IMG/VR virus record: IMGVR_UViG_3300027797_000011
Direction: 5' to 3' (one strand)
Length of the DNA: 64,000 bases
DNA from: a virus
Lineage: Duplodnaviria > Heunggongvirae > Uroviricota > Caudoviricetes
Both the position numbers and the translations under genes were made by a program. Below the pieces are notes generated by a model that had not been told where the DNA came from, searched no databases, and saw nothing but the letters and a program-made list of their open reading frames with translations. Positions 36,473 to 61,261 of the stretch are shown one piece after another. How positions within the stretch are numbered: position 1 is the first letter of the stretch; every line of letters begins with the position of its first letter.

Positions 36473-37669
36473 ATGCCCTATACGATATATAAAACAAACG
36501 GTATAAAACTAACCACTGTTGAAGACGGTACGTTAAATCTAACAACGGACCTACAACTTGTTGGAAAAAACTATGCCGGATATGGGCAGGTTGTAAACGG
36601 CAACCTAATAAAATTATTAGAGAATTTTGCTAATGCATCGGCTCCGGCTCGTCCATTAGCAGGACAGTTTTGGTACGATACAACCAATCAAAAAATTAAA
36701 TTCTATACGGGCACTCGATGGACTCCGTTGGCAACTACTAATGTGTCATCTAATATACCCACAGATTTAACTAACGGTGAATTTTGGTATGATTCTTCGT
36801 CCAAGAAATTATACATTAAGTACAACGGCAACTTTGAATTAATTGGACCAGGTACTGGCGGGGTAGGGTCTGTTAACGGATCGTTAAGTACAACTAGGGT
36901 ACAAGCAACTAGCGGTCGTTTTGATGTTATCGAGTTACCAATAGGTGACAGCATACCAGCAATAGTATCGTCACATGAATTTACAGTCGATGCTACGGAT
37001 CCTTTGATTACGTTATATTCTAATGTAAAAAATGGAATTACATTATATGGCGCCGATCCTGTGACAGGAATATCGTCATCGACTGGTGTTTATTTTTGGG
37101 GATCTGCTGCCGATTCGGTTCGATTAGGTGGTAAAGTATCTACTGATTTTTTAATGAAAACAGAAGTTGGAACGCTTACTGGGAATATTACTGAGCTAAC
37201 TAATATTACTCGTATCAGTTCTGGATCACCGGCAACACCGGGAACAATTGAAGGTACCTGGGCACTTACTGCTGGTTCTACATTGCAAGCAACTTATGCT
37301 GACTTAGCTGAACGATACGAAGCGGATGCAGAATACAACCCCGGAACTGTTTTGGTACTAGGTGGAGATAAAGAAGTCACAGTTACAACAACTTTTGCTG
37401 ATACAAGGGTAGCGGGTATTGTATCTACAAATCCTGCATTTAAGTTAAATTCCGACGCAGGAACTGACAAAACTCACCCCTATATTGCCTTAAAAGGTCG
37501 AGTTCCGTGTAAAGTTCAGGGGTATATTAAGAAGGGTGATCTAATAGTAACAAGTAGTACACCCGGATATGGAATAGCCGCCAGCAGTGTTTTTGGCGGC
37601 GCCATAATAGGAAAAGCCCTAGGAACTCAATCCGAGGGCTTTGGAATTATTGAAGTTTTAGTAGTTTAA
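36473..37669 (+). CDS. Tail fibre/virion protein, paralogue 4, with putative C-terminal autocleavage/chaperone domain
   Basis: Same N-terminal domain; C-terminal YADLAERYEAD...GTVLVLGG...GIVSTNP...IALKGRVPCKV. Confidence 0.7.
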   Translation: MPYTIYKTNGIKLTTVEDGTLNLTTDLQLVGKNYAGYGQVVNGNLIKLLENFANASAPARPLAGQFWYDTTNQKIKFYTGTRWTPLATTNVSSNIPTDLTNGEFWYDSSSKKLYIKYNGNFELIGPGTGGVGSVNGSLSTTRVQATSGRFDVIELPIGDSIPAIVSSHEFTVDATDPLITLYSNVKNGITLYGADPVTGISSSTGVYFWGSAADSVRLGGKVSTDFLMKTEVGTLTGNITELTNITRISSGSPATPGTIEGTWALTAGSTLQATYADLAERYEADAEYNPGTVLVLGGDKEVTVTTTFADTRVAGIVSTNPAFKLNSDAGTDKTHPYIALKGRVPCKVQGYIKKGDLIVTSSTPGYGIAASSVFGGAIIGKALGTQSEGFGIIEVLVV

Positions 37670-38541
37670 ACAGCCATAGGTGCTGTTATAGCTTCGTGAC
37701 TTTGATAGTTAACTAACTCAATAGCTTCCATAGTAAATTCTGTAATGCTTACTATTTCTGGATTCAATTGTAATTTTGGTGGTGCAAATGGTTTACGTGC
37801 AATTTGCTCTTTAACCTGATCTATATGATTTTCATAGATATGTGCATCACCTAAAACAATAGTAAGCTCTCCTACATTTAATTTACATGCCTGTGCAATC
37901 ATATGCGTGAACAATGCATAACTTGCAATGTTAAAAGGCACTCCAAGAAACATGTCCGCCGAACGTTGATACATCTGACAACTTAGTTTTTTGTCTGTAC
38001 TAACATAGAATTGTGCCATCATATGGCACGGAGGAAGGGCCATGAGATTTAATTCTCCCGGATTCCATGCAGTTAGAATATGTCTGCGTCCATAAGGATC
38101 TTTATTAATGCTGTTGATTAATTCAGCTAATTGATCAATATGCCTTACGCCCATTTTGTTTACACCAAATACCGGTGCTCTCCACGCTCGCCATTGCACT
38201 CCATATACACGCCCTAGATCGCCTACATGCTTTTTGTTAGGCAACCAATAATCGGCATTCGCATTATCTGTCCAGATAGTTCGTTTAGTCGAGTCTCGAT
38301 CTCCGTGTAAAATCTCTCTCAATCGACGCTCATCTCCTGAACCTTCGATAAACCACAGTAGCTCGGATACTATACTTTTCCATGCTAACTTCTTAGTAGT
38401 AATTGCAGGAAATCCTTTCTGCAAATCAAACTTTAATTGGATACCGAATTTAGAAAAGGTGCCAACTCCTGTTCGATCAGGGCGTTGTTCACCAGTTTCT
38501 AAAATACTTTTTAATGCATCTATGTATATTTTTTCTGACAT
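37666..38541 (-). CDS. thyA: Thymidylate synthase
   Basis: DRTGVGT, LPPCH and YQRSADMFLGVPFNIASY; the Asn in PFN indicates dUMP specificity. Confidence 0.95.
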   Translation of the reverse strand: MSEKIYIDALKSILETGEQRPDRTGVGTFSKFGIQLKFDLQKGFPAITTKKLAWKSIVSELLWFIEGSGDERRLREILHGDRDSTKRTIWTDNANADYWLPNKKHVGDLGRVYGVQWRAWRAPVFGVNKMGVRHIDQLAELINSINKDPYGRRHILTAWNPGELNLMALPPCHMMAQFYVSTDKKLSCQMYQRSADMFLGVPFNIASYALFTHMIAQACKLNVGELTIVLGDAHIYENHIDQVKEQIARKPFAPPKLQLNPEIVSITEFTMEAIELVNYQSHEAITAPMAV

Positions 38542-39713: not shown

Positions 39714-40970
39714 TTATTTATAGTGTGCGGTCTGACCGAAGGGCGCAATTATGGTTTCATTTCCGTGGACAATAAACAGGGTTTCTGCATAGTCCTCGTC
39801 ACCCCAACTTCCGCAAGGGTATCCATCTGTAAACATAATAAAGCGTTTTGGCTCAATGCCTTGTTCCTTCATAAAAGTCCAATTGACTTCAAAGTCAGTA
39901 CCCCCACCGCCTTGGCACTCGTATTCCATAATTTCGTCGGCAGTATCGCCGGTAAATTGTTTGTAACCGTAAACTTCTGTATCAAATGTCCACAGGTCCA
40001 ATTTAAAGTCAGTATACTCGTCCATGATACCTTTAACTTCTGATAAGAAGTCCTTAGCCATTTCGTCACTGATAGAACCAGACATGTCAATACAAACACT
40101 TACGTCAATAGTTTCTTCGTTCATCATACCGGGTAGTATTGCACCGCAATGTTGTGACTTACGATTAGGACGTTGGAAACTAAAATTGCTTTTAATGAGA
40201 CTTTGGATGTTCATACGCAACATCTGACGCCAGTCCATCTTAGGTTCTGTAAAATCAGAAATCATACGTGCAACACCTGCTGGTACCCTGCCAGCACCTG
40301 CGGCTTGTGCGGCCGCAACCATTGCTTCTTTAATTTCGTCTCGAATCTTTTTCTTCTCGTCAGCAGTTAAACGTGGTCGGCCCTTGCCATTACCCTTGCC
40401 ATCTTGATCTCCATCTTCATCGCCGTCATCACTATCGTCGAGGTGCTCGTCTAACAGTTCACCTAACTTGCTAATATCAATTTTTTCTGCTTTCTCGTAT
40501 AGCTCTTCGTAGATCTGCTCATAGCTCATGCCACGATATTTGTTGTCTTGAAAGATTTTAATCCAACTAGGCACTTCACCAATACGTTCATCTTTTAAGA
40601 TTTGATTGGTAGCGTAGTCTGCGGCAATGTTTGACAGTTGGGGATCTCGGCTATCTCGACGACCCATGTGGTCAAATACATTGTGTAATACTTCGTGAGC
40701 AAAGCCAAACTCTGCTTCTTTAGGTTTGAGCTTGTCTACAAATTCGTTATTGTAATAAAAATTCCGACCATCTGTTGCCAGGGTAGCACACCACTCGTCG
40801 GCATTCACTAATTTCAAACGGGTTGCAAGATTGCCAAAGAAAGGATGACGTAACAACAGACCCACACGGGCTGTAATTAGTTTGTCAAGAATAAGATTCT
40901 TTTCTCGGTCAGTAAACGTTTTAGTATTTTTTGGTTTACGAATTTTTTCAGTTTTCATTACAGATGTCAT
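39714..40970 (-). CDS. VWA-domain protein with N-terminal zincin-like (HExxH) domain (DUF2201-like)
   Basis: TLATDG...FAHEVLH; MIDAS motifs CIDMSGSI, GGGGTDF and FTDG. Confidence 0.85.
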   Translation of the reverse strand: MTSVMKTEKIRKPKNTKTFTDREKNLILDKLITARVGLLLRHPFFGNLATRLKLVNADEWCATLATDGRNFYYNNEFVDKLKPKEAEFGFAHEVLHNVFDHMGRRDSRDPQLSNIAADYATNQILKDERIGEVPSWIKIFQDNKYRGMSYEQIYEELYEKAEKIDISKLGELLDEHLDDSDDGDEDGDQDGKGNGKGRPRLTADEKKKIRDEIKEAMVAAAQAAGAGRVPAGVARMISDFTEPKMDWRQMLRMNIQSLIKSNFSFQRPNRKSQHCGAILPGMMNEETIDVSVCIDMSGSISDEMAKDFLSEVKGIMDEYTDFKLDLWTFDTEVYGYKQFTGDTADEIMEYECQGGGGTDFEVNWTFMKEQGIEPKRFIMFTDGYPCGSWGDEDYAETLFIVHGNETIIAPFGQTAHYK

Positions 40971-40993
40971 AATGTTCCTTTCGATGATATACT

Positions 40994-41022
40994 ATTATAT
41001 ACTCAAAAATGTAAAATAGCAA
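40994..41022 (-). promoter_or_regulatory. Sigma70-type promoter for the VWA gene
   Basis: TTGCTA-N17-TATAAT; AAGGA RBS downstream. Confidence 0.7.
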
Positions 41023-41024
41023 GT

Positions 41025-41051
41025 AAAAAGGGCTCCGAAGAGCCCTTTTTT
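41025..41051 (-). terminator. Rho-independent terminator after the MoxR ATPase gene
   Basis: GGGCTC-TTCG-GAGCCC hairpin (cUUCGg loop) with T tracts on both sides. Confidence 0.85.
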
Positions 41052-42147
41052 AGCCTTCCATTGCTGTGATAATGTACTTGCCATACTTATCGTGGAACTT
41101 GTCAAAGTGGACTAATTTGCTTGCATCAAACGGCAAGTTATAGTTAGTCAACGCTACTTTGGCACCCATAACTGTAAGTTCAGTTGGGAAGTTCTCCATC
41201 ATAAACTTGAAGAAATTGTCAGCCATTGCATCCCAATTCTTAACTTTCTTCTCGTCAGCAGTTTGGAGTTCGTAACACAAACTAATTGTAAGTGAATACA
41301 TTGCAGAGATTTCTTTAATTGAAACCTTTTCTACTTTACCAGATAGGATATCTTCTGGCTTAGGCATCTGTTTAGCAACCTTGCGGTGTGCCATAAACTT
41401 AACAGCAAGCCCTTCACCAACTGCACCTGCAACCAAGTCAGTCAATGTGCCTTCATCCAAGTCGTCATCTGTAAGTAATTCGCTAACAAAGGACCAGCTA
41501 CGTGGTGTAGCAAAAGCACGTGAACTAGACTTTGGATCAAAGTCGTACAAGTCTTGTTTGGCAAAGCCAACATAACCAACAACTTGTTCATGCACCTTGT
41601 TCAACGTAGCCCAGTTCAACCAATCTTCGTAGTCTGTCTTAAGTTCAATATGCACAAAACGATTAGCCAACGGACTAGGCATACGATAAGTTACGCCCTT
41701 GTCAGTTTCACGGTTACCAGCGGCAACAATGCTAACACCTTTTGGCAAATGGTACGTACCAACACGGCGATTAAGCACCAATTGGAATGCCGCCGCCTGT
41801 GTAGCAGGAGCCGCAGAGTTCAACTCATCCAAGAACAGGATAGCAGTTGAGTTAGGGTCAGTGGGCAGTTCTGCAGGAGGAGCCCAGCTCATAGTGTTTT
41901 CTGTAGCGTTGTAATATGGAATACCTTTAATGTCGGTAGGTTCCCACAAACTCAAACGAACGTCGATCACTTCACGATCTTGTTCTTCGCCGATTTGTTT
42001 AACAATATCGGACTTACCAATGCCCGGAGGGCCCCACATGAAAACCGGACGTTGAATTTTAACACACTTGCGTAGTGACTTTTTAGCTTCGCTAGGGGTT
42101 ACTGTCCGATTTGCGCTCATTTTTTCTGCCATAATAAACTTTCTCAA
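41050..42147 (-). CDS. MoxR-type AAA+ ATPase (likely start 42132)
   Basis: Walker A WGPPGIGKS, Walker B ILFLDELN, AAGNR, SPLANRF, TPRSW. Confidence 0.9.
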   Translation of the reverse strand: MRKFIMAEKMSANRTVTPSEAKKSLRKCVKIQRPVFMWGPPGIGKSDIVKQIGEEQDREVIDVRLSLWEPTDIKGIPYYNATENTMSWAPPAELPTDPNSTAILFLDELNSAAPATQAAAFQLVLNRRVGTYHLPKGVSIVAAGNRETDKGVTYRMPSPLANRFVHIELKTDYEDWLNWATLNKVHEQVVGYVGFAKQDLYDFDPKSSSRAFATPRSWSFVSELLTDDDLDEGTLTDLVAGAVGEGLAVKFMAHRKVAKQMPKPEDILSGKVEKVSIKEISAMYSLTISLCYELQTADEKKVKNWDAMADNFFKFMMENFPTELTVMGAKVALTNYNLPFDASKLVHFDKFHDKYGKYIITAMEG

Positions 42148-44627: not shown

Positions 44628-45064
44628 TAACTGACCTCTGTTTTTCCATCACCTAGATTATTAACATTAATATATCCAGAACCTCGTCTGTCCATATCAA
44701 CACCTGATTCTTGTCCTACATTCCTACAAAGGTCCTGGAACCACAAATCAACTACTGCCTCTTCGTCGTCACCTTTATAGCCTGCTAATCTTAATTGTAC
44801 TACAAAATGTTCATTCCAGTCAAGTTCAAAAAACCCATTGCGAGGATTTTCCGGATTTACTTTTGTATCTAGTACTCCTACCCACGGCTCACCTTTTTCT
44901 GTAGCAAGATCTTTGGGTGTTAGTTTAGCTTTTCGTGCATCTTCTTTGGCTTGTTTGGCTTCGGCTTCGGCTTCAATTTTTTGTTTAGTTGCTTCGGCTA
45001 CTTCAGCTTCAATTTTATCGATGCCAAATATCTTTTTAATAAACTTATTCATCAAGTTCCCCAC
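44627..45064 (-). CDS. Hypothetical protein (T4-like phage conserved)
   Basis: EPWVGVLDT...NGFFELDWN; coupled between queE and rnh. Confidence 0.7.
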   Translation of the reverse strand: MGNLMNKFIKKIFGIDKIEAEVAEATKQKIEAEAEAKQAKEDARKAKLTPKDLATEKGEPWVGVLDTKVNPENPRNGFFELDWNEHFVVQLRLAGYKGDDEEAVVDLWFQDLCRNVGQESGVDMDRRGSGYINVNNLGDGKTEVS

Positions 45065-45924
45065 TCATTTTTAAATAGTGGCACCTGCAACCTATCACTG
45101 TAACGTAAACCGTTTTTCATAGCTAATATTGCTACATTACGATTATTCATTGCGTAGACACTTTCTACACCGCCCACTGGCATTAGATAAACATGCCCTT
45201 TAAATCCTGCTGTACGATAAGCGGCAATAGCACATTCAGCATCAGCAAAGTCTTGCTCTGTAGCAATAACAAACTTCAAATAAGCTGTACCGTATTGCTC
45301 ATACTCAACTACTCGCTCTGGTTTAATAGCATCGTCCCACGGCTCGCCACTGCAAGGAAGTTTGGCACTTACACTAAATGTAATTTCTCTCTCGTCGCCG
45401 CCAAATGCCCAGTCTGCTAAGAATTCTTTAAATGCAGTAGTAAGACGCATTGTTCCGTTAGTTTCAAACGTAAGTTCTTTCAAACCTTTCATCTTAGGAT
45501 GTCTTAACAAATCTGGATATTGTTTTTGCCAACCTAGCAATGGTTCGCCGCCAGTAATGACAAGATGTTCATCATGCCATTCTTTGTGTGGCAACATTTC
45601 CATAATGCGTTCTACGATGCCATCAGTTTCGACTAGCGGGCTAAGATCTTTAAAACGAGCATCCCAACTTGCATAACTGTCGCAACCTGTACTTACTAAT
45701 GGAAGTTCATTATAATCTTTAAATTCTAGAATACGCTCTGCAATAGCTTCACGTTCATTAGATAGTTCGCCACGTGGCATACCAAAACCTTGACAGGTAA
45801 AGTTACATCCAAATGTACGCAAGAACACAGACGGTACACCCATGTAACGTCCTTCACCTTGTATACTATAAAATAATTCTGCTATCTTAATTTTACTCAT
45901 ACAATCTTTCCTAATCCTAACCAA
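45052..45924 (-). CDS. queE: 7-carboxy-7-deazaguanine synthase, radical SAM (likely start 45900)
   Basis: ELFYSIQGEG, FLRTFGCNFTC...GCD, ITGGEP, FETNG, SVSAKL. Confidence 0.9.
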   Translation of the reverse strand: MVRIRKDCMSKIKIAELFYSIQGEGRYMGVPSVFLRTFGCNFTCQGFGMPRGELSNEREAIAERILEFKDYNELPLVSTGCDSYASWDARFKDLSPLVETDGIVERIMEMLPHKEWHDEHLVITGGEPLLGWQKQYPDLLRHPKMKGLKELTFETNGTMRLTTAFKEFLADWAFGGDEREITFSVSAKLPCSGEPWDDAIKPERVVEYEQYGTAYLKFVIATEQDFADAECAIAAYRTAGFKGHVYLMPVGGVESVYAMNNRNVAILAMKNGLRYSDRLQVPLFKNEWGT

Positions 45925-46118: not shown

Positions 46119-46389
46119 TTTCGTAAATGGTAGACCATTGTTTTAGTTTTTCAATTTTAGCTTTTTTTGCTACGTCTAATGATACTTGATTAACCACACC
46201 TATGTCAAGTAGAATATCTACCATAGCTAGCAAATCGCCAATTTCTTCTTCTAAGTGTTCACAGTTAGTTTTTGGTTTACCCGGCTTGTAATTGTGTAAC
46301 CCAAATCTATGACACTTACTAACTGCCTGAATTACCTCAGCACATTCTTCGCTAAGGATATTCATTACTTCTCTTTCTTGATTATTCAT
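46111..46389 (-). CDS. MazG-like nucleotide pyrophosphohydrolase
   Basis: EECAEVIQAVSK...LEEEIGDL, the ExxE...ExxD motif. Confidence 0.8.
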   Translation of the reverse strand: MNNQEREVMNILSEECAEVIQAVSKCHRFGLHNYKPGKPKTNCEHLEEEIGDLLAMVDILLDIGVVNQVSLDVAKKAKIEKLKQWSTIYENV

Positions 46390-46895
46390 TTTTTTGCTCT
46401 TTCGGTAAGATATATGTCATTGTGAATCCACTTGTTCTTAACAAGAAATCCCCATTCACGTTTCTGCGGCCCTGGCATAAACAAAGTCCATGCGGTAATA
46501 TTTGGATCTAGTTCAATTCTATGATAACTGTTAGCACCGCAAATCCTAAAATGACCAGGACCTCTCCACTTTGCAATCTCACCAACTTTTTCATCAATTG
46601 AATTAAAAACTGGAACCCATTCCCAATAACCACCTTTGAGGATCAGTGTAGCATAAGGCCAAGGATGATCATGAACATCATCTGGATCTGACTTAAGAAA
46701 CTTGTGTATAAAAGCATTAAAGGGAAAACGCTGTCTGTCTTTTAGGAAGATATAATAACGTTCAAGATATGGTTCATCGTTTATTCTGTCAAAAATAACA
46801 CGCTTTCTACCATTCTTCTCTAACCAAGATAACATCCATTTCATATAGACTCCACTATGCGATACTTTGAAGCAGGATATTGTTCCTGAAGCCAT
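46386..46895 (-). CDS. Cupin-fold hypothetical protein (likely start 46844)
   Basis: HKFLKSD...HDHPW...ILKGGYWE...YHRIEL metal-binding cupin pattern. Confidence 0.7.
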   Translation of the reverse strand: MASGTISCFKVSHSGVYMKWMLSWLEKNGRKRVIFDRINDEPYLERYYIFLKDRQRFPFNAFIHKFLKSDPDDVHDHPWPYATLILKGGYWEWVPVFNSIDEKVGEIAKWRGPGHFRICGANSYHRIELDPNITAWTLFMPGPQKREWGFLVKNKWIHNDIYLTERAKK

Positions 46896-47171: not shown

Positions 47172-47906
47172 TTATTTCCTATCGCCAAACAACTGTAACA
47201 AGTTCAAGAACAAGTTTATAAAGTCCATATATAAACTTAATGCGCCTGTTACTTCTACAGCTGGGCTAGTGTCAACACTGACTGCTTCACGGATACGTTG
47301 TGTGTCATAAGCCGTTAATCCCAAGAAGATGATAATAGCCAAAGCACTAATAACCATAGCCATAACACTTGAGCCAATAAAGATGTTTACAATGCTGGCA
47401 ATCACAATAGCAATCAAACCAACAAACATCATCTGGCCCATTGAGCTTAGATCCTTTTTAGTAAAGTAACCATAACCACTCATCACACCAAACAGTATTG
47501 CCGCACCCATAAATGCTGACACAATACTACCCATAGTAAACACAGCAAAGATTGTGGCAAAGCTCAATCCCATAAGCGCCGCAAATCCGTGCAAGCATAA
47601 CTGTGCTACACTTTTACTGGGATTGTTAGCTAATACCGCAGAAATACCAAATATTGCTAATAGCGGTGAAAAGATTACAATCCATTTTGTTACGCCTGTA
47701 AAAAAGAACTGCAATAATTCTGGAGTAGTTCCGACCCAGTAACTAACTAGCATCGATACAATAACAGCTAGGCTCATATGTCCGTAGACACGACCCATTG
47801 CTGAATTAATTTCGCTAGCACTGCGGTAACTTAACACGTCGTCGCCTGTAAAGTTTGTTTCAAACATAATATTTCTCCTTAAGTATCTAATTCCATTGAG
47901 TTCCAC
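47172..47906 (-). CDS. Bax inhibitor-1 / YccA family membrane protein (likely start near 47868)
   Basis: About 7 hydrophobic segments; TKKDLSSMG, LTAYDTQRI and ALSLYMDFINLFLNLLQLFG. Confidence 0.9.
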   Translation of the reverse strand: MELNGIRYLRRNIMFETNFTGDDVLSYRSASEINSAMGRVYGHMSLAVIVSMLVSYWVGTTPELLQFFFTGVTKWIVIFSPLLAIFGISAVLANNPSKSVAQLCLHGFAALMGLSFATIFAVFTMGSIVSAFMGAAILFGVMSGYGYFTKKDLSSMGQMMFVGLIAIVIASIVNIFIGSSVMAMVISALAIIIFLGLTAYDTQRIREAVSVDTSPAVEVTGALSLYMDFINLFLNLLQLFGDRK

Positions 47907-48081: not shown

Positions 48082-48831
48082 TTATCTTGGTGCAAATTCT
48101 TGCTGTAATTTAATGTTATCAAAGAACTCTTTCTTTGTATTGCCATCGGTGTTAAACGCACCTTTAAGTACTGTAGTCTGCGTAAGACTAGAGTGTGCCA
48201 TAATGCCACGATTTTCACAACATCCATGAGTTGCTTGAATATAAACAGCAACATTTTCGCTATCAGTTGCCTTCATAATTTCTCGGGCAATGTCGTTGCA
48301 GAGTTCTTCTTGTAGTGTTCCTCGACGAGCACACCATTGTGCGATACGAGTATATTTAGAAAGACCAATGAGTTTATTAGCGGCAATGATACCGATGTAG
48401 GCAACCCCAGATACAGGCTGGTGATGATGAGAGCACATGGACCGTAGCTCACTGCGAACAACCAACATACCTTCGTACCTATCTTCACTATCATTTGGGA
48501 ATGCCGTTGCGTCTGGTGCTGGATCATATCGACCTCCCATAATTTCGTTGTAGTACATTTTAGCCAGTCGCCTTGCTGTGCCTTTTGAGTTGGGATCGTT
48601 CTCACGATCAATAAGTAATCGATCAAGCACTGTTTCAAATGCTTCTGCGGCTTCGTCAATTAGCTGTTCTTTAACATGCTCATTGTCAATATACTCGCTA
48701 ATATTATCACCTGCCCAGAAACGTTTGCCTTCGCGTTTCATTTTAAAGCGAAGGTAATTGCCTAGATATTTTTCTTCTTTGTAGCCGCCATCACCTGCCA
48801 TAGCGTCTAATCCTGTTTCTTTATTTGTCAA
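48082..48831 (-). CDS. folE: GTP cyclohydrolase I
   Basis: SMCSHHHQP, IGLSKYTRI, RRGTLQEEL, HGCCENRG; TTG start with GGAG RBS. Confidence 0.95.
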   Translation of the reverse strand: MTNKETGLDAMAGDGGYKEEKYLGNYLRFKMKREGKRFWAGDNISEYIDNEHVKEQLIDEAAEAFETVLDRLLIDRENDPNSKGTARRLAKMYYNEIMGGRYDPAPDATAFPNDSEDRYEGMLVVRSELRSMCSHHHQPVSGVAYIGIIAANKLIGLSKYTRIAQWCARRGTLQEELCNDIAREIMKATDSENVAVYIQATHGCCENRGIMAHSSLTQTTVLKGAFNTDGNTKKEFFDNIKLQQEFAPR

Positions 48832-48881: not shown

Positions 48882-49688
48882 CTATTTAGGTTCTGTCAAC
48901 CTAAGTAGTGTATTTTTCTTAACGGCTGCATCAATAACATTTAGAACAACGTTTTGAGTTTCGGCAAACTTTAGTAATGCGGCTGTATCTTTTGGAAAAC
49001 ACATCCCGCCAAATCCCAAAGCGCCATCTGGACCTGGAACTTGCGTATGGCTTTTGCCAAATCTTTTATCTAATCTAATCAGATTAGTAATATGATTGTA
49101 ATCCATTCCTGATGCTGTAGCTAACGCATACAACTCGTTCATGAATACTACTTTTGTAGCCAAGAAACAATTGATAGCATATTTGGCCAGGCTTGCTTCA
49201 GCGGTGGTTGCATATCGGATGTCTTTAAGACCACTTTGTCCCCATTTTATAATGCGTTCAGCTTCTCTTATATAAGCAGAAGTACTTCCGCCAATAATGG
49301 CAAACGTTCCACTGGCATAATCCTTACTAGCATTTGCTGCCGTTAAAAACTCTGGTGCATGTACTAGATTGATATATTTTTGAGATAAGTTTTCATACAC
49401 GCTAGGAGGCGCAGTAGTTTTACTAATGATCACTCCTTTAAAGTCTTTAAGTTTATCTAAGGTGTCTTCTAAAATAGTCGTATCGCAACTACCGTCATCA
49501 CTACTTGGGCTAGGTACACATACAAATATAGCCTCGCATGATGTAAGATCTTTATATGTGTGGGGTAACCCTTTTGGCGGATCTACTAAAATTAAATTAC
49601 CAAATCCACTCATTGAGTCGCGAATTGCACTTCCAACAAATCCTAATCCTACAATTCCTATTTTAGGAAACTCATTTTCAAAAATCAT
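48882..49688 (-). CDS. UDP-glucose/GDP-mannose 6-dehydrogenase-like protein lacking the C-terminal domain
   Basis: GIVGLGFVG Rossmann motif, FVCVPSP, ISKTTAPP, HAPEFL, AKYAINCFLA, catalytic GFGGMCFPKD. Confidence 0.85.
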   Translation of the reverse strand: MIFENEFPKIGIVGLGFVGSAIRDSMSGFGNLILVDPPKGLPHTYKDLTSCEAIFVCVPSPSSDDGSCDTTILEDTLDKLKDFKGVIISKTTAPPSVYENLSQKYINLVHAPEFLTAANASKDYASGTFAIIGGSTSAYIREAERIIKWGQSGLKDIRYATTAEASLAKYAINCFLATKVVFMNELYALATASGMDYNHITNLIRLDKRFGKSHTQVPGPDGALGFGGMCFPKDTAALLKFAETQNVVLNVIDAAVKKNTLLRLTEPK

Positions 49689-50836
49689 TTAATATTCTCC
49701 AATAGACGATCTGCGCTAAAGAAATATTTAGACAAATCGTCGGCCTGTTTGCGTATTTGTGGAATTCTAGTCTTGTAATTGGCCATGTGTTCTATAATTA
49801 GACGACACAAATCTTGTCGATAAACTTTGTATGTTTCAAAACTTTCAGTCCATTCACTTGGATATTTGAACGTATCATAATACATTTCTGTATAACTTAA
49901 CCGATCTGGAACTAAGGGAATTGCATCAACGAGGGCACCTTCGTAGCAACTGATGCCAAGTGTTTCTTGTAGATTGGCACTGAATACCATCTTAGCTTCA
50001 CCTAGCAAATTGTGATATTCATTCTTTGTTAATTGTTGATCCTGACAAACAATAAATTCATATTGTGGCAAATGTTCTTTTAAGTCGCGGAAGATTTCAA
50101 CCTGTTTCTCTGGAGCGATACGATGCGGGAACAAGATAAGATCACGCTTGGGCATGCCTTTGTATGGAGTAAGGGTTGCATCCATATACTCCATGGGCCA
50201 GCCTGTGCGTACAATCTTACCGCTGTCGTAACGCTCTGACCAATCTTCTGCATACCAAGGATTTTCTACTGGATAATCATGTAAAAGATTATCAAACATC
50301 ATTTTAACATGAAACTCTGTGGCAAAATAGTTGTGGTCAAATGCTGAAAAGAATGATTTCTCTGCATTACGTACCCAAGGCTTATTGCCAACTAGTCGAC
50401 CTAGGAAGTCTTGAGGATCATAACTACCAGCATGCCACAAGCCGTGAATTGTGATAGGAATGCCTAATAGCTCACTCATGTACTTTAGATTAATGATACC
50501 TGGATGCCAAGCATCAGTAAACACAAAATGATCGCCGGAATTAACGGATCCGCTACAAAATAAACGGCCCATCTGCTCCACTTGACTAGCTTTGTATATA
50601 TTAGTTCCACCAAAGTTGAGAAATGCACCAGGAGTGGTAGCACTAGGAATGTCCGTAGGACCTGATATAATGTTGACATTGTGTCCTGCCTTTTTAAGTA
50701 AGGAAGGTACATGGGACTTCCATTGCCCCGTGTACCGTGTCTCTACTGATTCTAAATCAACGAGAAAAATTCTGCTCATTGCGTCTACCGGTGTTGTCCC
50801 AACGTGGCTTATTGCCCAAGTACGGTTTACGCTCAC
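49685..50836 (-). CDS. GT-B fold glycosyltransferase (likely start near 50780, MSRIF)
   Basis: LFPHRIAPEKQ and FSANLQETLGIS...EGA...PLVPDRLSYTEM, as in GT-B/GT4-like C-terminal domains. Confidence 0.75.
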   Translation of the reverse strand: MSVNRTWAISHVGTTPVDAMSRIFLVDLESVETRYTGQWKSHVPSLLKKAGHNVNIISGPTDIPSATTPGAFLNFGGTNIYKASQVEQMGRLFCSGSVNSGDHFVFTDAWHPGIINLKYMSELLGIPITIHGLWHAGSYDPQDFLGRLVGNKPWVRNAEKSFFSAFDHNYFATEFHVKMMFDNLLHDYPVENPWYAEDWSERYDSGKIVRTGWPMEYMDATLTPYKGMPKRDLILFPHRIAPEKQVEIFRDLKEHLPQYEFIVCQDQQLTKNEYHNLLGEAKMVFSANLQETLGISCYEGALVDAIPLVPDRLSYTEMYYDTFKYPSEWTESFETYKVYRQDLCRLIIEHMANYKTRIPQIRKQADDLSKYFFSADRLLENIK

Positions 50837-51083
50837 GGTGCTCGCCGGTACCTCTAGCAGAGTCTCGCCACTCTCGTGAACGATACATATCGGCAGGATT
50901 AAAGTTAATTAAATTGAAACGACAATAGTCGAGCCATTTATCGAGGTCATCGAATACTTTTTCAACCTCTGGTTTCATTTTAAGAGTTTTTTGGATGTAG
51001 GCAGGGATATTTGCCATTTTAAGATTCCATTGTAGAAATGTGATTAATAAAAGTAAGTGCGGCGCCATTCTCACCGTCTTCAC
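50757..51083 (-). CDS. Hypothetical protein (likely start near 51017, MANIP)
   Basis: KMKPEVEKVFDDLD...YCRF; Arg-rich tail. Confidence 0.55.
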   Translation of the reverse strand: MKTVRMAPHLLLLITFLQWNLKMANIPAYIQKTLKMKPEVEKVFDDLDKWLDYCRFNLINFNPADMYRSREWRDSARGTGEHRERKPYLGNKPRWDNTGRRNEQNFSR

Positions 51084-51438
51084 TTACATCGATGATAGTC
51101 TTACGACCAGGGTATCTTGCTTTGATGATGTCGTTAAGATCACGAGCAATCATCTCACAGGAACAATGGTTGAGCTCTAATGTACCATCACTGTAGCACT
51201 TTTCAAGCCAACGCTTAAACTGGATAAACTCAATGTCACGGTCATCTTGATAGACCTGGATATAAACTTTAAAATGGAAAATATGACGATGTGGAGTTCC
51301 GAGGAAACTAACATCATATTCATCACCTGTAGCCAACTTAGGATCAGTTGCCGCGGCAGGGTACATGTGAATACCTTCTTTACGGAAGGTTACCCAAATC
51401 ATTGATAGATCAGATGACATTTTTAATTCCTTCTGCAA
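51019..51438 (-). CDS. QueD-like T-fold protein, probable DpdL-type (CDG decarboxylase)
   Basis: T-fold pattern with FLGTPHRHIF (LxxxHRHxF) rather than the QueD CxxxHGH; SCEMIA; EDGENG; lies in a deazaguanine cluster. Confidence 0.65.
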   Translation of the reverse strand: MQKELKMSSDLSMIWVTFRKEGIHMYPAAATDPKLATGDEYDVSFLGTPHRHIFHFKVYIQVYQDDRDIEFIQFKRWLEKCYSDGTLELNHCSCEMIARDLNDIIKARYPGRKTIIDVSEDGENGAALTFINHISTMES

Positions 51439-51619
51439 GGATATCTAGTTCGGCGTCTGTCATAAAAAATTGATATGTTGAAGATAGTGTAACGTCACCA
51501 TTTAAATCTTTTGCTTGTTGAGTAAATTCAAGAGCATTTAAATCTCGAGGTGCGGAACATTTCCATGCTTTAAGAACAAGCCGAAACCCGGCATCGTCTT
51601 TGATAATAACTTCTTTCAT
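51410..51619 (-). CDS. Hypothetical protein
   Basis: 69 aa with coupled overlaps. Confidence 0.55.
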   Translation of the reverse strand: MKEVIIKDDAGFRLVLKAWKCSAPRDLNALEFTQQAKDLNGDVTLSSTYQFFMTDAELDILAEGIKNVI

Positions 51620-52128
51620 TTTAAGATTGTATCGTTAGAGTAAGCATCCCATGGAGTAAACTTACTACGGTCTTTTAAATCGTGTAGGCTATGACACCAC
51701 ACGCCCGGGTTCGTTGCTTTAAAATCTTTATCATCGATCTTAAGCATCGTGTTATAGTTCCATAATTTAATATATGGAACTGGAACTCTTATTTGCGGAA
51801 TGAAGTTATCGTAATCATTCAATCCACCGTCATTAAACTCTTCTACAGCACTCAACGGAATATCTAGGGAACACAGATAATCTTTATCTAAGAAATATGA
51901 AATCATATCTTCCCACTGTTTCCATTCTTCCGAAGTCCGTGGATTAAAGCTATGATTTGCACCAAAGAAAATATGCTCTGCTCCATTTAAGTTTAGAGCA
52001 ATTTCTTCTACTGGATGTATGCCTGTTACAAACAATGTCATCTTTCCAAATGCCGGTGTATGTTCAACCTCTACGCCTGTAAAGAACTGAACATCGCTTG
52101 CTTCGCCTGTTGTGTAATCACGTTTCAT
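51616..52128 (-). CDS. Hypothetical protein in the deazaguanine cluster
   Basis: 170 aa; GVEVEHTP...TLFV...HIFFGANHSF...KIDDKDFKATNPGVWCH. Confidence 0.7.
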   Translation of the reverse strand: MKRDYTTGEASDVQFFTGVEVEHTPAFGKMTLFVTGIHPVEEIALNLNGAEHIFFGANHSFNPRTSEEWKQWEDMISYFLDKDYLCSLDIPLSAVEEFNDGGLNDYDNFIPQIRVPVPYIKLWNYNTMLKIDDKDFKATNPGVWCHSLHDLKDRSKFTPWDAYSNDTILK

Positions 52129-52648: not shown

Positions 52649-54184
52649 TTAGACTCCTAAGTCGCTCATTAATTTAATCATTTTTTCGTCTTCAACATCT
52701 TCGAGATCAACTTCGTCTGATTTAGTTACTTCTACTTCAAACAAATTGTTAAACGTGTTTTGTTTAGGACCACCTTGTAGTCGAGAACCTTCTAAACTCT
52801 TTAAGAATGGAACTGCTTGTTCAATCATCTCAAATGCTTCGGCTTTTGTTTTAGTGTTAAACAACTCTTCTACAAATCTATCAAAATAAAGAATCTTTCG
52901 TGGAACCCAATCGCTTAATTCGATTTCTTTCTTGCCTTCTAAACTCCACATGCGCCAATCTGGCTTATGTTTAGCACATTCAATGTCCATTAACTGTTGA
53001 GCACGTTGTACGGCAACAATATGACAATATACATTATGTCCCATCATTAGAGCATAGGCAAAACTATCCCAACTAGTTTTTCCTTCTTTCTTAATCTTAT
53101 TTAACATTCCGGGTGCGTAATGACAAATGTCGCCTACAGTTAATCTGCGACCGATCTCTGATTCGAAGGGGAACGGAATATCGCTTCCTGCAAGAGCTTT
53201 GTTGTCAAAGGCTTTGTCCATAATAACGCTCCACCTTTTTGGTGTGTGGACTGCATTGGTGTAGACAAGTCCGTGGGCTGTTGCAATGAACGGTGAGGCG
53301 CAATCAAAAGAGATGGTAATTTCTTCATTTATGTGTTTCCTTATTTGACGTTGAATTGATGTTAAAAAGCATGACCAATCTAACTGTGCTGTACCCAAAA
53401 AGTGGATCCAGTTTTTGCCTTCGAGCAAACCATCTTCTCTAAGTGTCATTAAACGCTTGAGAGTAATATCCATCTTACACATATTAGCACCACCAAAGGC
53501 CCACCCTTCGGCTTCACGACCGGCATACGGACCTGTGGGATCGCTAAATTCTTTTACACCTTGATACCATGCTTCTGCGGTATCCCAGTCGCCGCCTTGT
53601 AGCACGTTAAGCCATTTAGTTTGACCTAATCGATTATCTAAGAAATACTTATTATTGAATTTTGTTTTATCTAAACAATCATCAAATGTTTTTAATCCAG
53701 TCTTTGGACTATGAATGTGATCACATGCCCAAGTAGGAACGTCCAGCATCATGGACCAGTCAGCAGTAAGTTCTAACCATTCTAAAATACTTTGACGAGT
53801 CTTGTTTGCGGCCTTGCCCTCAAAATCTAGCCAGTCAAACTTAAGAACACCTTTACCAATTTGATATCCACCAGAGTCACCTAAGATCATTGTGTTGCCA
53901 CGATCTCGTTGTTGAATCATTGACTCTTGCGTCAATGATTTGTTTAGGTCTAACTGTGCATGACCTGCGGAATACAATCCATATTTGTAAGTAAAGTAAC
54001 CTTGTTCGGGATTAAGAAAATTCATTCCTTCAATACCACGATCAAATCCCGTCGGAACACGATCGTCTGGAATAAACTTCTCTAATCTCTGTTTAGCAAC
54101 ATAGGTGCTATAGAAACTACTAATAGCTGGCAAATAGACAGCGTAGTCTTTCTGAAATGGGGTTAGGTTAACTGGTGGATTCAT
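52649..54184 (-). CDS. dpdA: TGT-fold deoxyguanosine transglycosylase (DpdA-like)
   Basis: ILGDSGGYQ, SMMLDVP, NVLQG, GWAFGG, IHFLGT and SFDCASP; co-located with folE, queE and the QueD-like gene. Confidence 0.8.
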   Translation of the reverse strand: MNPPVNLTPFQKDYAVYLPAISSFYSTYVAKQRLEKFIPDDRVPTGFDRGIEGMNFLNPEQGYFTYKYGLYSAGHAQLDLNKSLTQESMIQQRDRGNTMILGDSGGYQIGKGVLKFDWLDFEGKAANKTRQSILEWLELTADWSMMLDVPTWACDHIHSPKTGLKTFDDCLDKTKFNNKYFLDNRLGQTKWLNVLQGGDWDTAEAWYQGVKEFSDPTGPYAGREAEGWAFGGANMCKMDITLKRLMTLREDGLLEGKNWIHFLGTAQLDWSCFLTSIQRQIRKHINEEITISFDCASPFIATAHGLVYTNAVHTPKRWSVIMDKAFDNKALAGSDIPFPFESEIGRRLTVGDICHYAPGMLNKIKKEGKTSWDSFAYALMMGHNVYCHIVAVQRAQQLMDIECAKHKPDWRMWSLEGKKEIELSDWVPRKILYFDRFVEELFNTKTKAEAFEMIEQAVPFLKSLEGSRLQGGPKQNTFNNLFEVEVTKSDEVDLEDVEDEKMIKLMSDLGV

Positions 54185-60808: not shown

Positions 60809-61261
60809 TTATTGTCCTTGTAGGCTAGCACTTAACATCCAGCCGTGTTTACGATGTGCATCCATACGTTCTGCTAAGAAATTACTAAATCCGTGTTCAC
60901 CGTATTTTTCTGCTAGATCATAAACTAATTTTAAAACTTCTATCATGCGTTCGTTATCTTGCAATAATTCTGCAACCATTGCTTCTTTAGGTGGAAGACT
61001 ATTTTCATCTGGAACTGTACTAAGCATACTAAATGCGCTTAGACTTCCGGGAACAAAGGTGCCTAAGCTACGAATTTTTTCAGCAAAGATATCGATGCTT
61101 GCATACACTTCTTCGTATACAGCACCAAACAGTTGATGATATTCTAAAAAGTCACTGCCCACAACATTCCAATGGTAGTTATGCGCCTTTAGATAAAAAC
61201 TAAATTCGCTTGCGAAACCTATCTTAGCAGCCTTACGTAAATCTTCCATTTTTAAATCCAT
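60809..61261 (-). CDS. dps: Dps / ferritin-like DNA protection protein
   Basis: FYLKAHNYHWNVVG..F..YH.LF...YEE...DIFAEKIRSLG ferroxidase motifs; HRKHGWML end. Confidence 0.9.
   Translation of the reverse strand: MDLKMEDLRKAAKIGFASEFSFYLKAHNYHWNVVGSDFLEYHQLFGAVYEEVYASIDIFAEKIRSLGTFVPGSLSAFSMLSTVPDENSLPPKEAMVAELLQDNERMIEVLKLVYDLAEKYGEHGFSNFLAERMDAHRKHGWMLSASLQGQ

Follow-up and report, generated by a model that had tools for sequence, protein, structure and literature searches.

We analysed a stretch of 64,000 nucleotides (nt) from IMG/VR record IMGVR_UViG_3300027797_000011, hereafter the window, which is a section of a jumbo myophage genome; statements on genome-wide absence rest on its relatives. 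The subject is a glycosyltransferase (GT) gene that lies, together with a short nucleotide-sugar dehydrogenase gene, among genes for 7-deazaguanine modification of DNA. The window system is predicted to be a glycosylating form of the known 7-deazaguanine DNA modification systems, and we lean, if only slightly, towards a sugar (probably a neutral hexose, or unspecified) on a QueC-independent 7-deazaguanine in DNA. An earlier note on this stretch had proposed a deazaguanine base carrying a uronic acid; the sugar is retained in our preferred reading, and the uronate is weak, the dehydrogenase being truncated and optional.

Organization of the locus

The genes listed here all lie on the minus strand.

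52649-54184, minus: dpdA, 511 amino acids (aa), DNA 7-deazaguanine transglycosylase-like protein of the tRNA-guanine transglycosylase (TGT) family, Wroclawvirus type (hhalign and conserved residues)
51616-52128, minus: 170-aa conserved gene, its model weakly QueE-like (partial barrel), given as a lead
51019-51420, minus: dpdL, QueD paralog with LxxxHRHxF, proposed 7-carboxy-7-deazaguanine (CDG) decarboxylase (tblastn and motif, as defined in PMC10516641)
50757-51017, minus: conserved gene of 86 aa that shares 23 nt with the start of the GT gene (called gene; in 69 of the 91 loci first clustered)
49685-50779, minus: GT, 364 aa, predicted retaining GT-B/GT4 enzyme with a QTMAN/GTDC1-like C-terminal donor domain and a family-specific N-terminal acceptor domain (model, fold search, alignment)
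48882-49688, minus: short UDP-glucose/GDP-mannose dehydrogenase-like protein, 268 aa, accessory (Pfam PF03721 and PF00984)
48082-48831, minus: folE, GTP cyclohydrolase I, first step to 7-deazaguanines (Pfam PF01227, E 7.6e-40)
46386-46844, minus: cupin, 'cysteine dioxygenase'-like (PHROG 4786)
45052-45900, minus: queE, CDG synthase of the radical SAM type (PHROG 2076, E 4.9e-51)
37666-38541, minus: thyA, canonical thymidylate synthase (NCBIfam equivalog above cut-off; PFN motif)

Along the minus strand the order is pol, clamp, a 121-aa gene, dpdA, a 174-aa gene, the 170-aa gene, a 69-aa gene, dpdL, the 86-aa gene, GT, dehydrogenase and folE, followed by the cupin gene and queE. Both open reading frames (ORFs) of the GT-dehydrogenase pair are real, as the earlier note had them, with the GT start corrected from 50836 to 50779. 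The ATG at 50779 gives a protein of 364 aa that matches a database protein and independently called genes exactly, and position 50836 is an in-frame GTG within the upstream 86-aa gene and not the true start. The coupling of the two sugar genes inside the deazaguanine cluster is evident: a single ATGA (49685-49688) holds both the GT stop and the dehydrogenase start, with GGAG about 8 nt upstream, and the pair sits between folE and dpdL/dpdA.

Linkage of the glycosyltransferase to dpdA and dpdL

The IMG/VR set comprised 144 GT loci, in which counts were made on loci with enough flanking sequence; 67 non-redundant loci span the region from the clamp gene to folE. dpdL was present in 125 of 125 loci and dpdA in 105 of 105 (67/67 once near-duplicates were removed), counts that are not independent, since most of the loci belong to one clade with GTs 76-86% identical. 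Recurrence in unrelated genomes is the weightier evidence of linkage. The GT recurs with two different DpdA subfamilies across unrelated phages and in shuffled order, namely dpdA-GT-dpdL in Paride and PA5oct, dpdA-GT-dpdL-queE in ACP17 and GT-dpdA-dpdL-queE in X1; the module is also found in BUCT-ZZ01, and Phosso and BCSR5 carry the GT with dpdL. Among GTDB contigs, dpdA was found in 26 of 30 GT loci, the other four being short or cut; about 10 of these 30 contigs resemble mis-binned phage and the remainder are bacterial islands (Magnetospirillum, Shimia, Sulfitobacter, Azospirillum, Aurantimonas and others). The co-occurrence of GT and dpdA, which the earlier note had put forward as a check, was thus found in both sets, and the GT belongs to the deazaguanine system through its linkage to dpdA and dpdL in unrelated phage lineages and bacterial islands.

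Searches with Paride and BUCT-ZZ01 as positive controls did not find the GT in Cellulophaga phage phiST, whose DNA contains plain 7-deazaguanine (dDG), or in the other DpdL phages RHph_I1_18, D479, Ahp1 and Bakedbeans, and it is therefore not needed for plain dDG. With these controls it was found neither in CP220 nor in pf16 and 2.275.O, two QueC/QueF phages of which 2.275.O carries the window's DpdA type.

These arrangements bear on the suggestion that the GT and the dehydrogenase act elsewhere, in the glycosylation of a pterin, of virion proteins or of the host surface, and have no more than an operon in common with the deazaguanine genes. Loci with dehydrogenase and folE but no GT lie among other GT-like and oxygenase-like genes, making such a role plausible for the dehydrogenase, and a tetrahydrobiopterin glucosyltransferase appears in the GT fold list (5ZER, Z 20.8). 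The GT itself, in contrast, stays by dpdA and dpdL through rearrangements in unrelated phages and also occurs in bacterial islands that have neither virion genes nor folE, and we regard this explanation as improbable.

Several neighbours of the module were recorded alongside. In nine bacterial islands a gene for a Vut_1/YhhQ-like transporter of the queuosine precursor preQ0 lies beside or near the GT (weak, sub-cut-off family matches). Alongside the GT and a dpdA-like gene, the islands L330, L332, L340, L341, L344, L345, L326-L328, L334-L339 and L342 have large unknown ORFs and dpdL/queD or a Vut_1-like transporter; they are possibly an undescribed Dpd-type defence or self-modification system. 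A purine phosphoribosyltransferase, which could recycle the guanine released by DpdA, is present in 43 of the 67 loci (L021:9799-10314; also Paride gp120 and BUCT-ZZ01) and is not in the window's cluster. In the Synechococcus phage BUCT-ZZ01 (L090:4364-8521) two GT-B genes flank dpdA2-dpdL, and the extra 447-aa GT has relatives beside some bacterial islands (L330, L332, L340).

Fold and kinship of the glycosyltransferase

The AlphaFold2 model of the GT (pLDDT 95.5) shows a GT-B fold with two Rossmann domains, for which the best structural match in the VIA search has a Z score of 26.0 and a root-mean-square deviation of 3.2 over 316 aligned residues. The closest folds identified by Foldseek and VIA are BshA, sucrose-phosphate synthase and glycogen synthase, all retaining GT-B enzymes, and the catalytic motifs H116, R220, K225 and E272-x7-E280 are kept in an alignment of 114 homologs. 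Judged from the model, the protein is an intact retaining GT-B/GT4 enzyme. Its family is large, with at least 8000 clusters at 90% identity and 1147 representatives at 50%, and the Atlas clusters are nearly all viral; direct scans against Pfam, PHROG and NCBIfam returned nothing above cut-off for the GT, DpdA, DpdL or the 170-aa protein.

With a profile of the GT family, 14 bacterial QTMAN_N proteins reached 46-78 bits, and some 35 generic GT4s of the same phylum stayed at 12 bits or below. All of this signal is held by the C-terminal donor domain, whose half-profile gave 46-78 bits against at most 14 for GT4 controls (hhalign 99.5%), and the reciprocal test gave medians of 40 vs 1.7 bits. The N-terminal acceptor domain scored at most 1 bit against QTMAN (hhalign E 0.08), and neither a member scan nor a genome search matched QTMAN_N (PF12038) in the GT; the whole GT as a QTMAN ortholog was accordingly rejected, the likeness being confined to the donor half.

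In tRNA, QTMAN adds mannose to queuosine (PMC11755703). By sequence, it is the nearest characterised relative of the GT among the families compared, and it also sugars a 7-deazaguanine derivative. The QTMAN family uses GDP-mannose, and this kinship suggests a GDP-mannose-type donor for the window enzyme. QTMAN/GTDC1 (QTMAN_N PF12038 with Glycos_transf_1) and its bacterial homologs thus resemble the GT in the GT-B fold, the related donor domain and a 7-deazaguanine derivative in nucleic acid, whereas the window GT has no QTMAN_N, the window genes make no queuine cyclopentenediol and the predicted target is DNA.

The earlier note had pointed to T4-like GT-B enzymes, which glucosylate hmC DNA. 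T4 alpha-glucosyltransferase stands far down the fold list of the GT (rank 34, Z 18.4 vs 26.0 for the best). The T4 alpha- and beta-glucosyltransferases and the phage GTs associated with 5mYOX (10.1101/2023.12.21.572611) share the GT-B fold and place sugars, including uronic acids, on DNA bases, and the alpha enzyme is likewise retaining. In contrast to the window system, they act on 5-hydroxymethylcytosine, and no hydroxymethyl-pyrimidine gene was seen linked to the GT in the window.

Deazaguanine partner genes

FolE, QueE and DpdL with LxxxHRHxF, all components of a DpdL-type 7-deazaguanine DNA modification system, are encoded in the window. The dpdL gene matched CGPG_00067 of phiST at 34% and gp125 of ACP17 at 56% in tblastn. 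DpdL is a proposed CDG decarboxylase yielding 7-deazaguanine (PMC10516641). In the Vibrio phage Bakedbeans, gp176 (L091:6218-7369) is a DpdL fused to an N-terminal domain of about 260 aa.

The DpdA profile is related to the DpdA2 group (hhalign probability 96.8, E 2.3e-10), which includes the validated VH7D enzyme that inserts deazaguanines in DNA (PMC10516641). Conserved residues are D103-SGG, D148, Q196, H261 and D294, the TGT-type aspartates D103, D148 and D294 being invariant, and the window protein is 44.7% identical to that of PA5oct/Paride; it gave no direct Pfam hit, and its alignment no significant PDB sequence match. DNA of PA5oct resists enzymes at GA/GG sites, which its authors read as modified G (PMC12191111).

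No canonical QueD was seen in the window, but one is encoded elsewhere in three of four related contigs and in Paride. QueC was not found above cut-off in nine related GT genomes, five of them complete, with one sub-threshold hit in X1 (positive control 2.275.O), and neither QueF nor QueA was seen in GT loci. Of 119 close loci, 118 have the 170-aa gene, which ACP17 also encodes, as gp122. Its model (pLDDT 89.6) aligns with three QueE structures in VIA at Z 5.2-6.0 over 122-129 residues. The protein has no CxxxCxxC, no sequence-profile support for QueE likeness and no significant PDB sequence match, with ESM Atlas matches below 0.9 and nothing in Foldseek at E<=0.001. Judged by the model, a degenerate QueE paralog with a deazaguanine as ligand is a possibility. 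In X1 and BCSR5 a small gene directly before the GT has an N-terminal motif similar to that of the 170-aa protein (weak; BCSR5 E 0.02); CGPG_00066 of phiST, considered as a GT or 170-aa homolog, was rejected as a P-loop protein.

A tRNA target, in which the TGT-like enzyme and the QTMAN-like GT would make a glycosylated base at position 34, draws on the GT-QTMAN relationship and on the Vut_1 transporter neighbours. We hold it to be very unlikely: the transglycosylase is a relative of DpdA2, whose VH7D member works on DNA; the DNA of PA5oct is modified at G; with QueC below cut-off and QueF and QueA not seen in the loci, there is no cyclopentenediol acceptor; and the acceptor domain is unlike that of QTMAN.

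The thyA product scored 347.6 bits against a cut-off of 327 for the NCBIfam thymidylate synthase equivalog and carries the PFN motif, in agreement with the earlier view that it is canonical and not a dCMP hydroxymethylase. No hydroxymethyl-pyrimidine gene was seen in the ORF lists of the window, as had also been stated, and none beside the GT in the loci clustered; the co-occurrence with hmC or hmU genes that the earlier note had named as evidence against a deazaguanine target thus did not appear in the loci examined. In Paride and in Phosso, whose genomes are complete, there is one thymidylate synthase-family gene; each carries the Asn (Paride's is divergent), a residue that alone does not exclude a dUMP hydroxymethylase. 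A TET_JBP search matched nothing anywhere, controls included, and is hence uninformative on a TET/5mYOX partner.

The short dehydrogenase is decoupled from the glycosyltransferase

The dehydrogenase has Pfam hits for the NAD-binding and central domains (PF03721 and PF00984) and none for the C-terminal domain; PDB alignments stop near residue 300 of about 440, and the NCBIfam score is 133 bits against a cut-off of 189.8. It retains G14xGxxG, E113, K169, N173, C230 and D234. It thus shares with the UDP-glucose/GDP-mannose 6-dehydrogenases (PF03721, PF00984 and PF03720) two domains and the catalytic Lys, Asn, Cys, Glu and Asp, but is 268 aa long instead of about 390-450 aa. The missing C-terminal domain binds the nucleotide of the sugar substrate. 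The earlier note had overlooked this loss. Homologs in these loci are nearly all 250-307 aa.

Among the 67 clamp-to-folE loci, the dehydrogenase lies directly after the GT in 14, further downstream in 10 and upstream of the clamp gene in 23 (mostly a 33-42% identical subtype), and is absent from 20. It was not found in Paride, ACP17, Phosso and BUCT-ZZ01, complete genomes with GT, dpdL and dpdA, and it occurs in two of the 30 GTDB GT loci, both phage-like. Around its closest relatives, folE comes next in 71 of 73 loci and the GT precedes in 39 of 63, a few of the 24 misses having short flanks. About 17 loci have dehydrogenase-folE without GT, dpdL or dpdA in the available flank of up to 7 kb; as these contigs are 13-26% complete, the GT may lie elsewhere in those genomes. 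The GT-less copies interleave with the GT-adjacent ones in a quick tree, which has long branches for the CP220 and Microbacterium rows and was used only for interleaving among close rows. Locus L235 keeps the clamp, 121-aa and 86-aa genes and the dehydrogenase, and has lost dpdA, dpdL, GT and folE. Given this distribution, the dehydrogenase is a mobile accessory gene that tracks folE more than the GT, and the conserved GT reaction cannot depend on it.

The distribution weakens the proposal of a uronic acid on the base (+176 Da), arising either from UDP-glucuronate (or GDP-mannuronate) that the dehydrogenase supplies or from its oxidation of a hexose bound to DNA. The ATGA coupling, the intact catalytic Lys/Asn/Cys/Glu and the short dehydrogenase that 47 of 67 loci have at some place in the clamp-folE region favour it, as do a full-length dehydrogenase directly after the GT in locus L324, short homologs coupled to another GT in Microbacterium phages and the uronic acids borne by phage 5-hydroxymethylcytosine (10.1101/2023.12.21.572611). 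Against these stand the lost C-terminal domain, the absence from many GT loci and four cultured genomes, the closer tie to folE, the persistence in L235 and the short dehydrogenase near queE in CP220, whose DNA is 100% 2'-deoxy-7-amido-7-deazaguanosine (dADG; PMC10516641). A uronic acid on the base is therefore unlikely in our judgement, and the earlier claim that the dehydrogenase supplies the GT with UDP-glucuronate could not be upheld. As the dehydrogenase is an unreliable predictor of the sugar, a search by mass should look beyond +176 Da.

The short subfamily extends to Campylobacter phage CP220 and to C48C1 and Microbacterium phages such as KaiHaiDragon. In CP220 (L156:8928-10762), a phage with no such GT, it lies two genes after queE and may serve the chemistry of the deazaguanine instead of sugar metabolism. 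In KaiHaiDragon (L157:5286-7681) a ParB-like gene, a small gene, a GT and the short dehydrogenase form an overlapping run, a candidate for a separate DNA glycosylation module. A second phage lineage (L177:6851-9513; L169, L174, L179, L182, L190, L195, L196, L206, L215) has dehydrogenase-folE with no dpdA or dpdL nearby, its folE about 85% identical to that of the window and usually followed by a conserved gene of about 240 aa with faint GT-A-like hits. Between dpdA and the 170-aa gene, 21 of the 67 loci have a Gfo/Idh/MocA oxidoreductase paired with a Zn-alcohol dehydrogenase (L023:5060-5941, L062:4726-5622). This pair was never seen with the GT-adjacent dehydrogenase; since it co-occurs with the upstream subtype, the two as strict alternatives were rejected. 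The redox genes around the GT are exchangeable.

Proposed pathway and its weighing

From the observed gene identities, motifs, fold, linkage and presence/absence pattern we infer the sugar, its donor, its position and the timing of its transfer. The route from GTP to CDG through FolE, QueD and QueE is established in the literature; here FolE, a canonical QueD encoded elsewhere in the genome and QueE would follow it, with QueC not involved. DpdL would then process CDG, by the proposed decarboxylation, to 7-deazaguanine, and DpdA, by homology, would swap the product for guanine in replicated DNA. As a dedicated member of this QueC-less module, the GT would transfer a sugar with retention from a nucleotide-sugar, most likely that of a neutral hexose, onto the deazaguanine. 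The sugar might sit on N2 after insertion, as in huimycin and dapiramicin, or on carbon 7 before or after insertion; other candidate acceptors are the CDG carboxylate and a hydroxyl that a further gene, for instance the 170-aa gene, would introduce. The dehydrogenase would be optional, in some lineages oxidising C6 of the nucleotide-sugar or of the attached sugar, or serving an unrelated glycan; as speculation, a dehydrogenase without the nucleotide-binding domain might act on the DNA-attached sugar. The glycosylated purine would block restriction and other DNA-targeting defences.

With moderate confidence we expect virion DNA of the window phage, PA5oct/Paride, ACP17, X1 and BUCT-ZZ01 to carry a glycosylated 7-deazaguanine, and the bacterial islands to use the same module; in lineages such as that of the window, the truncated dehydrogenase may oxidise the sugar, possibly on DNA, giving neutral and uronic variants.

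Besides the clade-bound counts, several points weigh against this pathway. The acceptor half of the GT, as given above, is unlike that of QTMAN. The protein is acidic (net charge -9, also the family median), and its modelled fold is nearer small-molecule GT4s than the T4 alpha enzyme, so that the structure lends no support to direct action on duplex DNA; the acidity is easier to reconcile with work on the free base ahead of its insertion, or with the help of a partner that binds DNA, than with the enzyme acting on the duplex by itself. Plain 7-deazaguanine without a hydroxyl acceptor is a weak point. The activity of DpdL is unproven, dpdL and dpdA of ACP17 having given no dDG in E. coli (PMC10516641), and no nucleoside mass spectrum of a GT-bearing phage was found in the literature consulted. 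A prediction of the GT-DpdA complex scored 0.00, gave no verdict and is not used as evidence.

The fold and the acidic charge would also suit a GT that belongs to the module and leaves no sugar in DNA, acting by transient glycosylation of the free base or CDG (activation, storage or detoxification) or as a non-catalytic partner. Such a role accounts for the linkage equally well, and the transporter and phosphoribosyltransferase neighbours point to free-base handling. On the other side, phiST and the four other DpdL phages do without this GT, and we know of no precedent for a transiently glycosylated deazaguanine intermediate. Among the alternatives considered here this seems the least improbable, though still doubtful, and a sugar retained in DNA remains our preferred reading.

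Comparison with known systems and significance

The closest described system is the DpdL-type, QueC-less dDG system of phiST and ACP17 (PMC10516641), which the window resembles in FolE, QueE, DpdL with LxxxHRHxF, a DpdA and no QueC found, with QueD elsewhere in relatives. phiST differs in a short DpdA3, plain dDG and the lack of such a GT, whereas the window has the 511-aa DpdA2-related type and a built-in GT4. In ACP17 the GT gene lies between dpdA and dpdL; PMC10516641 covers this phage, and its main text has no words in 'glycosyl-' or 'sugar-'. A requirement for the GT may explain the lack of product from ACP17 dpdL and dpdA alone in E. coli.

A precedent among small molecules is huimycin, in which HuiG attaches N-acetylglucosamine at N2 of a 7-deazapurine (PMC7439116), with dapiramicin as a further N2 precedent; GTs of the huimycin cluster family are annotated PF13439/GT4 (10.64898/2026.04.15.718813). 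Compared by description, HuiG is similarly encoded with folE/queD/queE and places its sugar on N2 of a 7-deazaguanine-derived base, but the product is an antibiotic whose synthesis needs QueC and a methyltransferase and involves no DpdA.

No glycosylated deazaguanine in DNA was found in the literature searched, which left subscription papers, including the 2024 MMBR review, outside reach. To our knowledge, the sugar-modified DNA bases described are pyrimidines (glucosyl-hmC, base J and glyco-hmC variants). If the pathway holds, a glycosylated deazaguanine would bridge two modification worlds that have been separate and tie phage DNA chemistry to the tRNA queuosine glycosyltransferases, the donor half of the GT being, by sequence comparison, apparently common to the animal queuosine mannosyltransferase and this phage module. 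It would also give the modified G of therapeutic jumbo phages like PA5oct a candidate identity. What is added here for the dehydrogenase is the evidence that it is decoupled from the GT and follows folE instead.

Other genes and features of the window

The cupin gene is a frequent neighbour in the window's clade (58 of 67 loci), whereas L001-L005, the loci from cultured GT phages, do not have it. A YccA/Bax-inhibitor membrane protein is encoded near 47172-47867. Ordinary jumbo-phage genes include an SbcCD-like nuclease pair, a late sigma-like factor, a MoxR-type AAA ATPase with a VWA/metallopeptidase partner and a Dps/ferritin-like protein (2417-6178, 39714-42147, 60809-61261); like the membrane protein, they were assigned by sequence only. 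Several six-base-pair palindromes are scarce in the window, with observed/expected ratios of 0.27 for AAGCTT, 0.48 for GAATTC, 0.48 for CTGCAG and 0.53 for GGATCC (small counts), which suggests restriction pressure despite modification, such site counts not being diagnostic.

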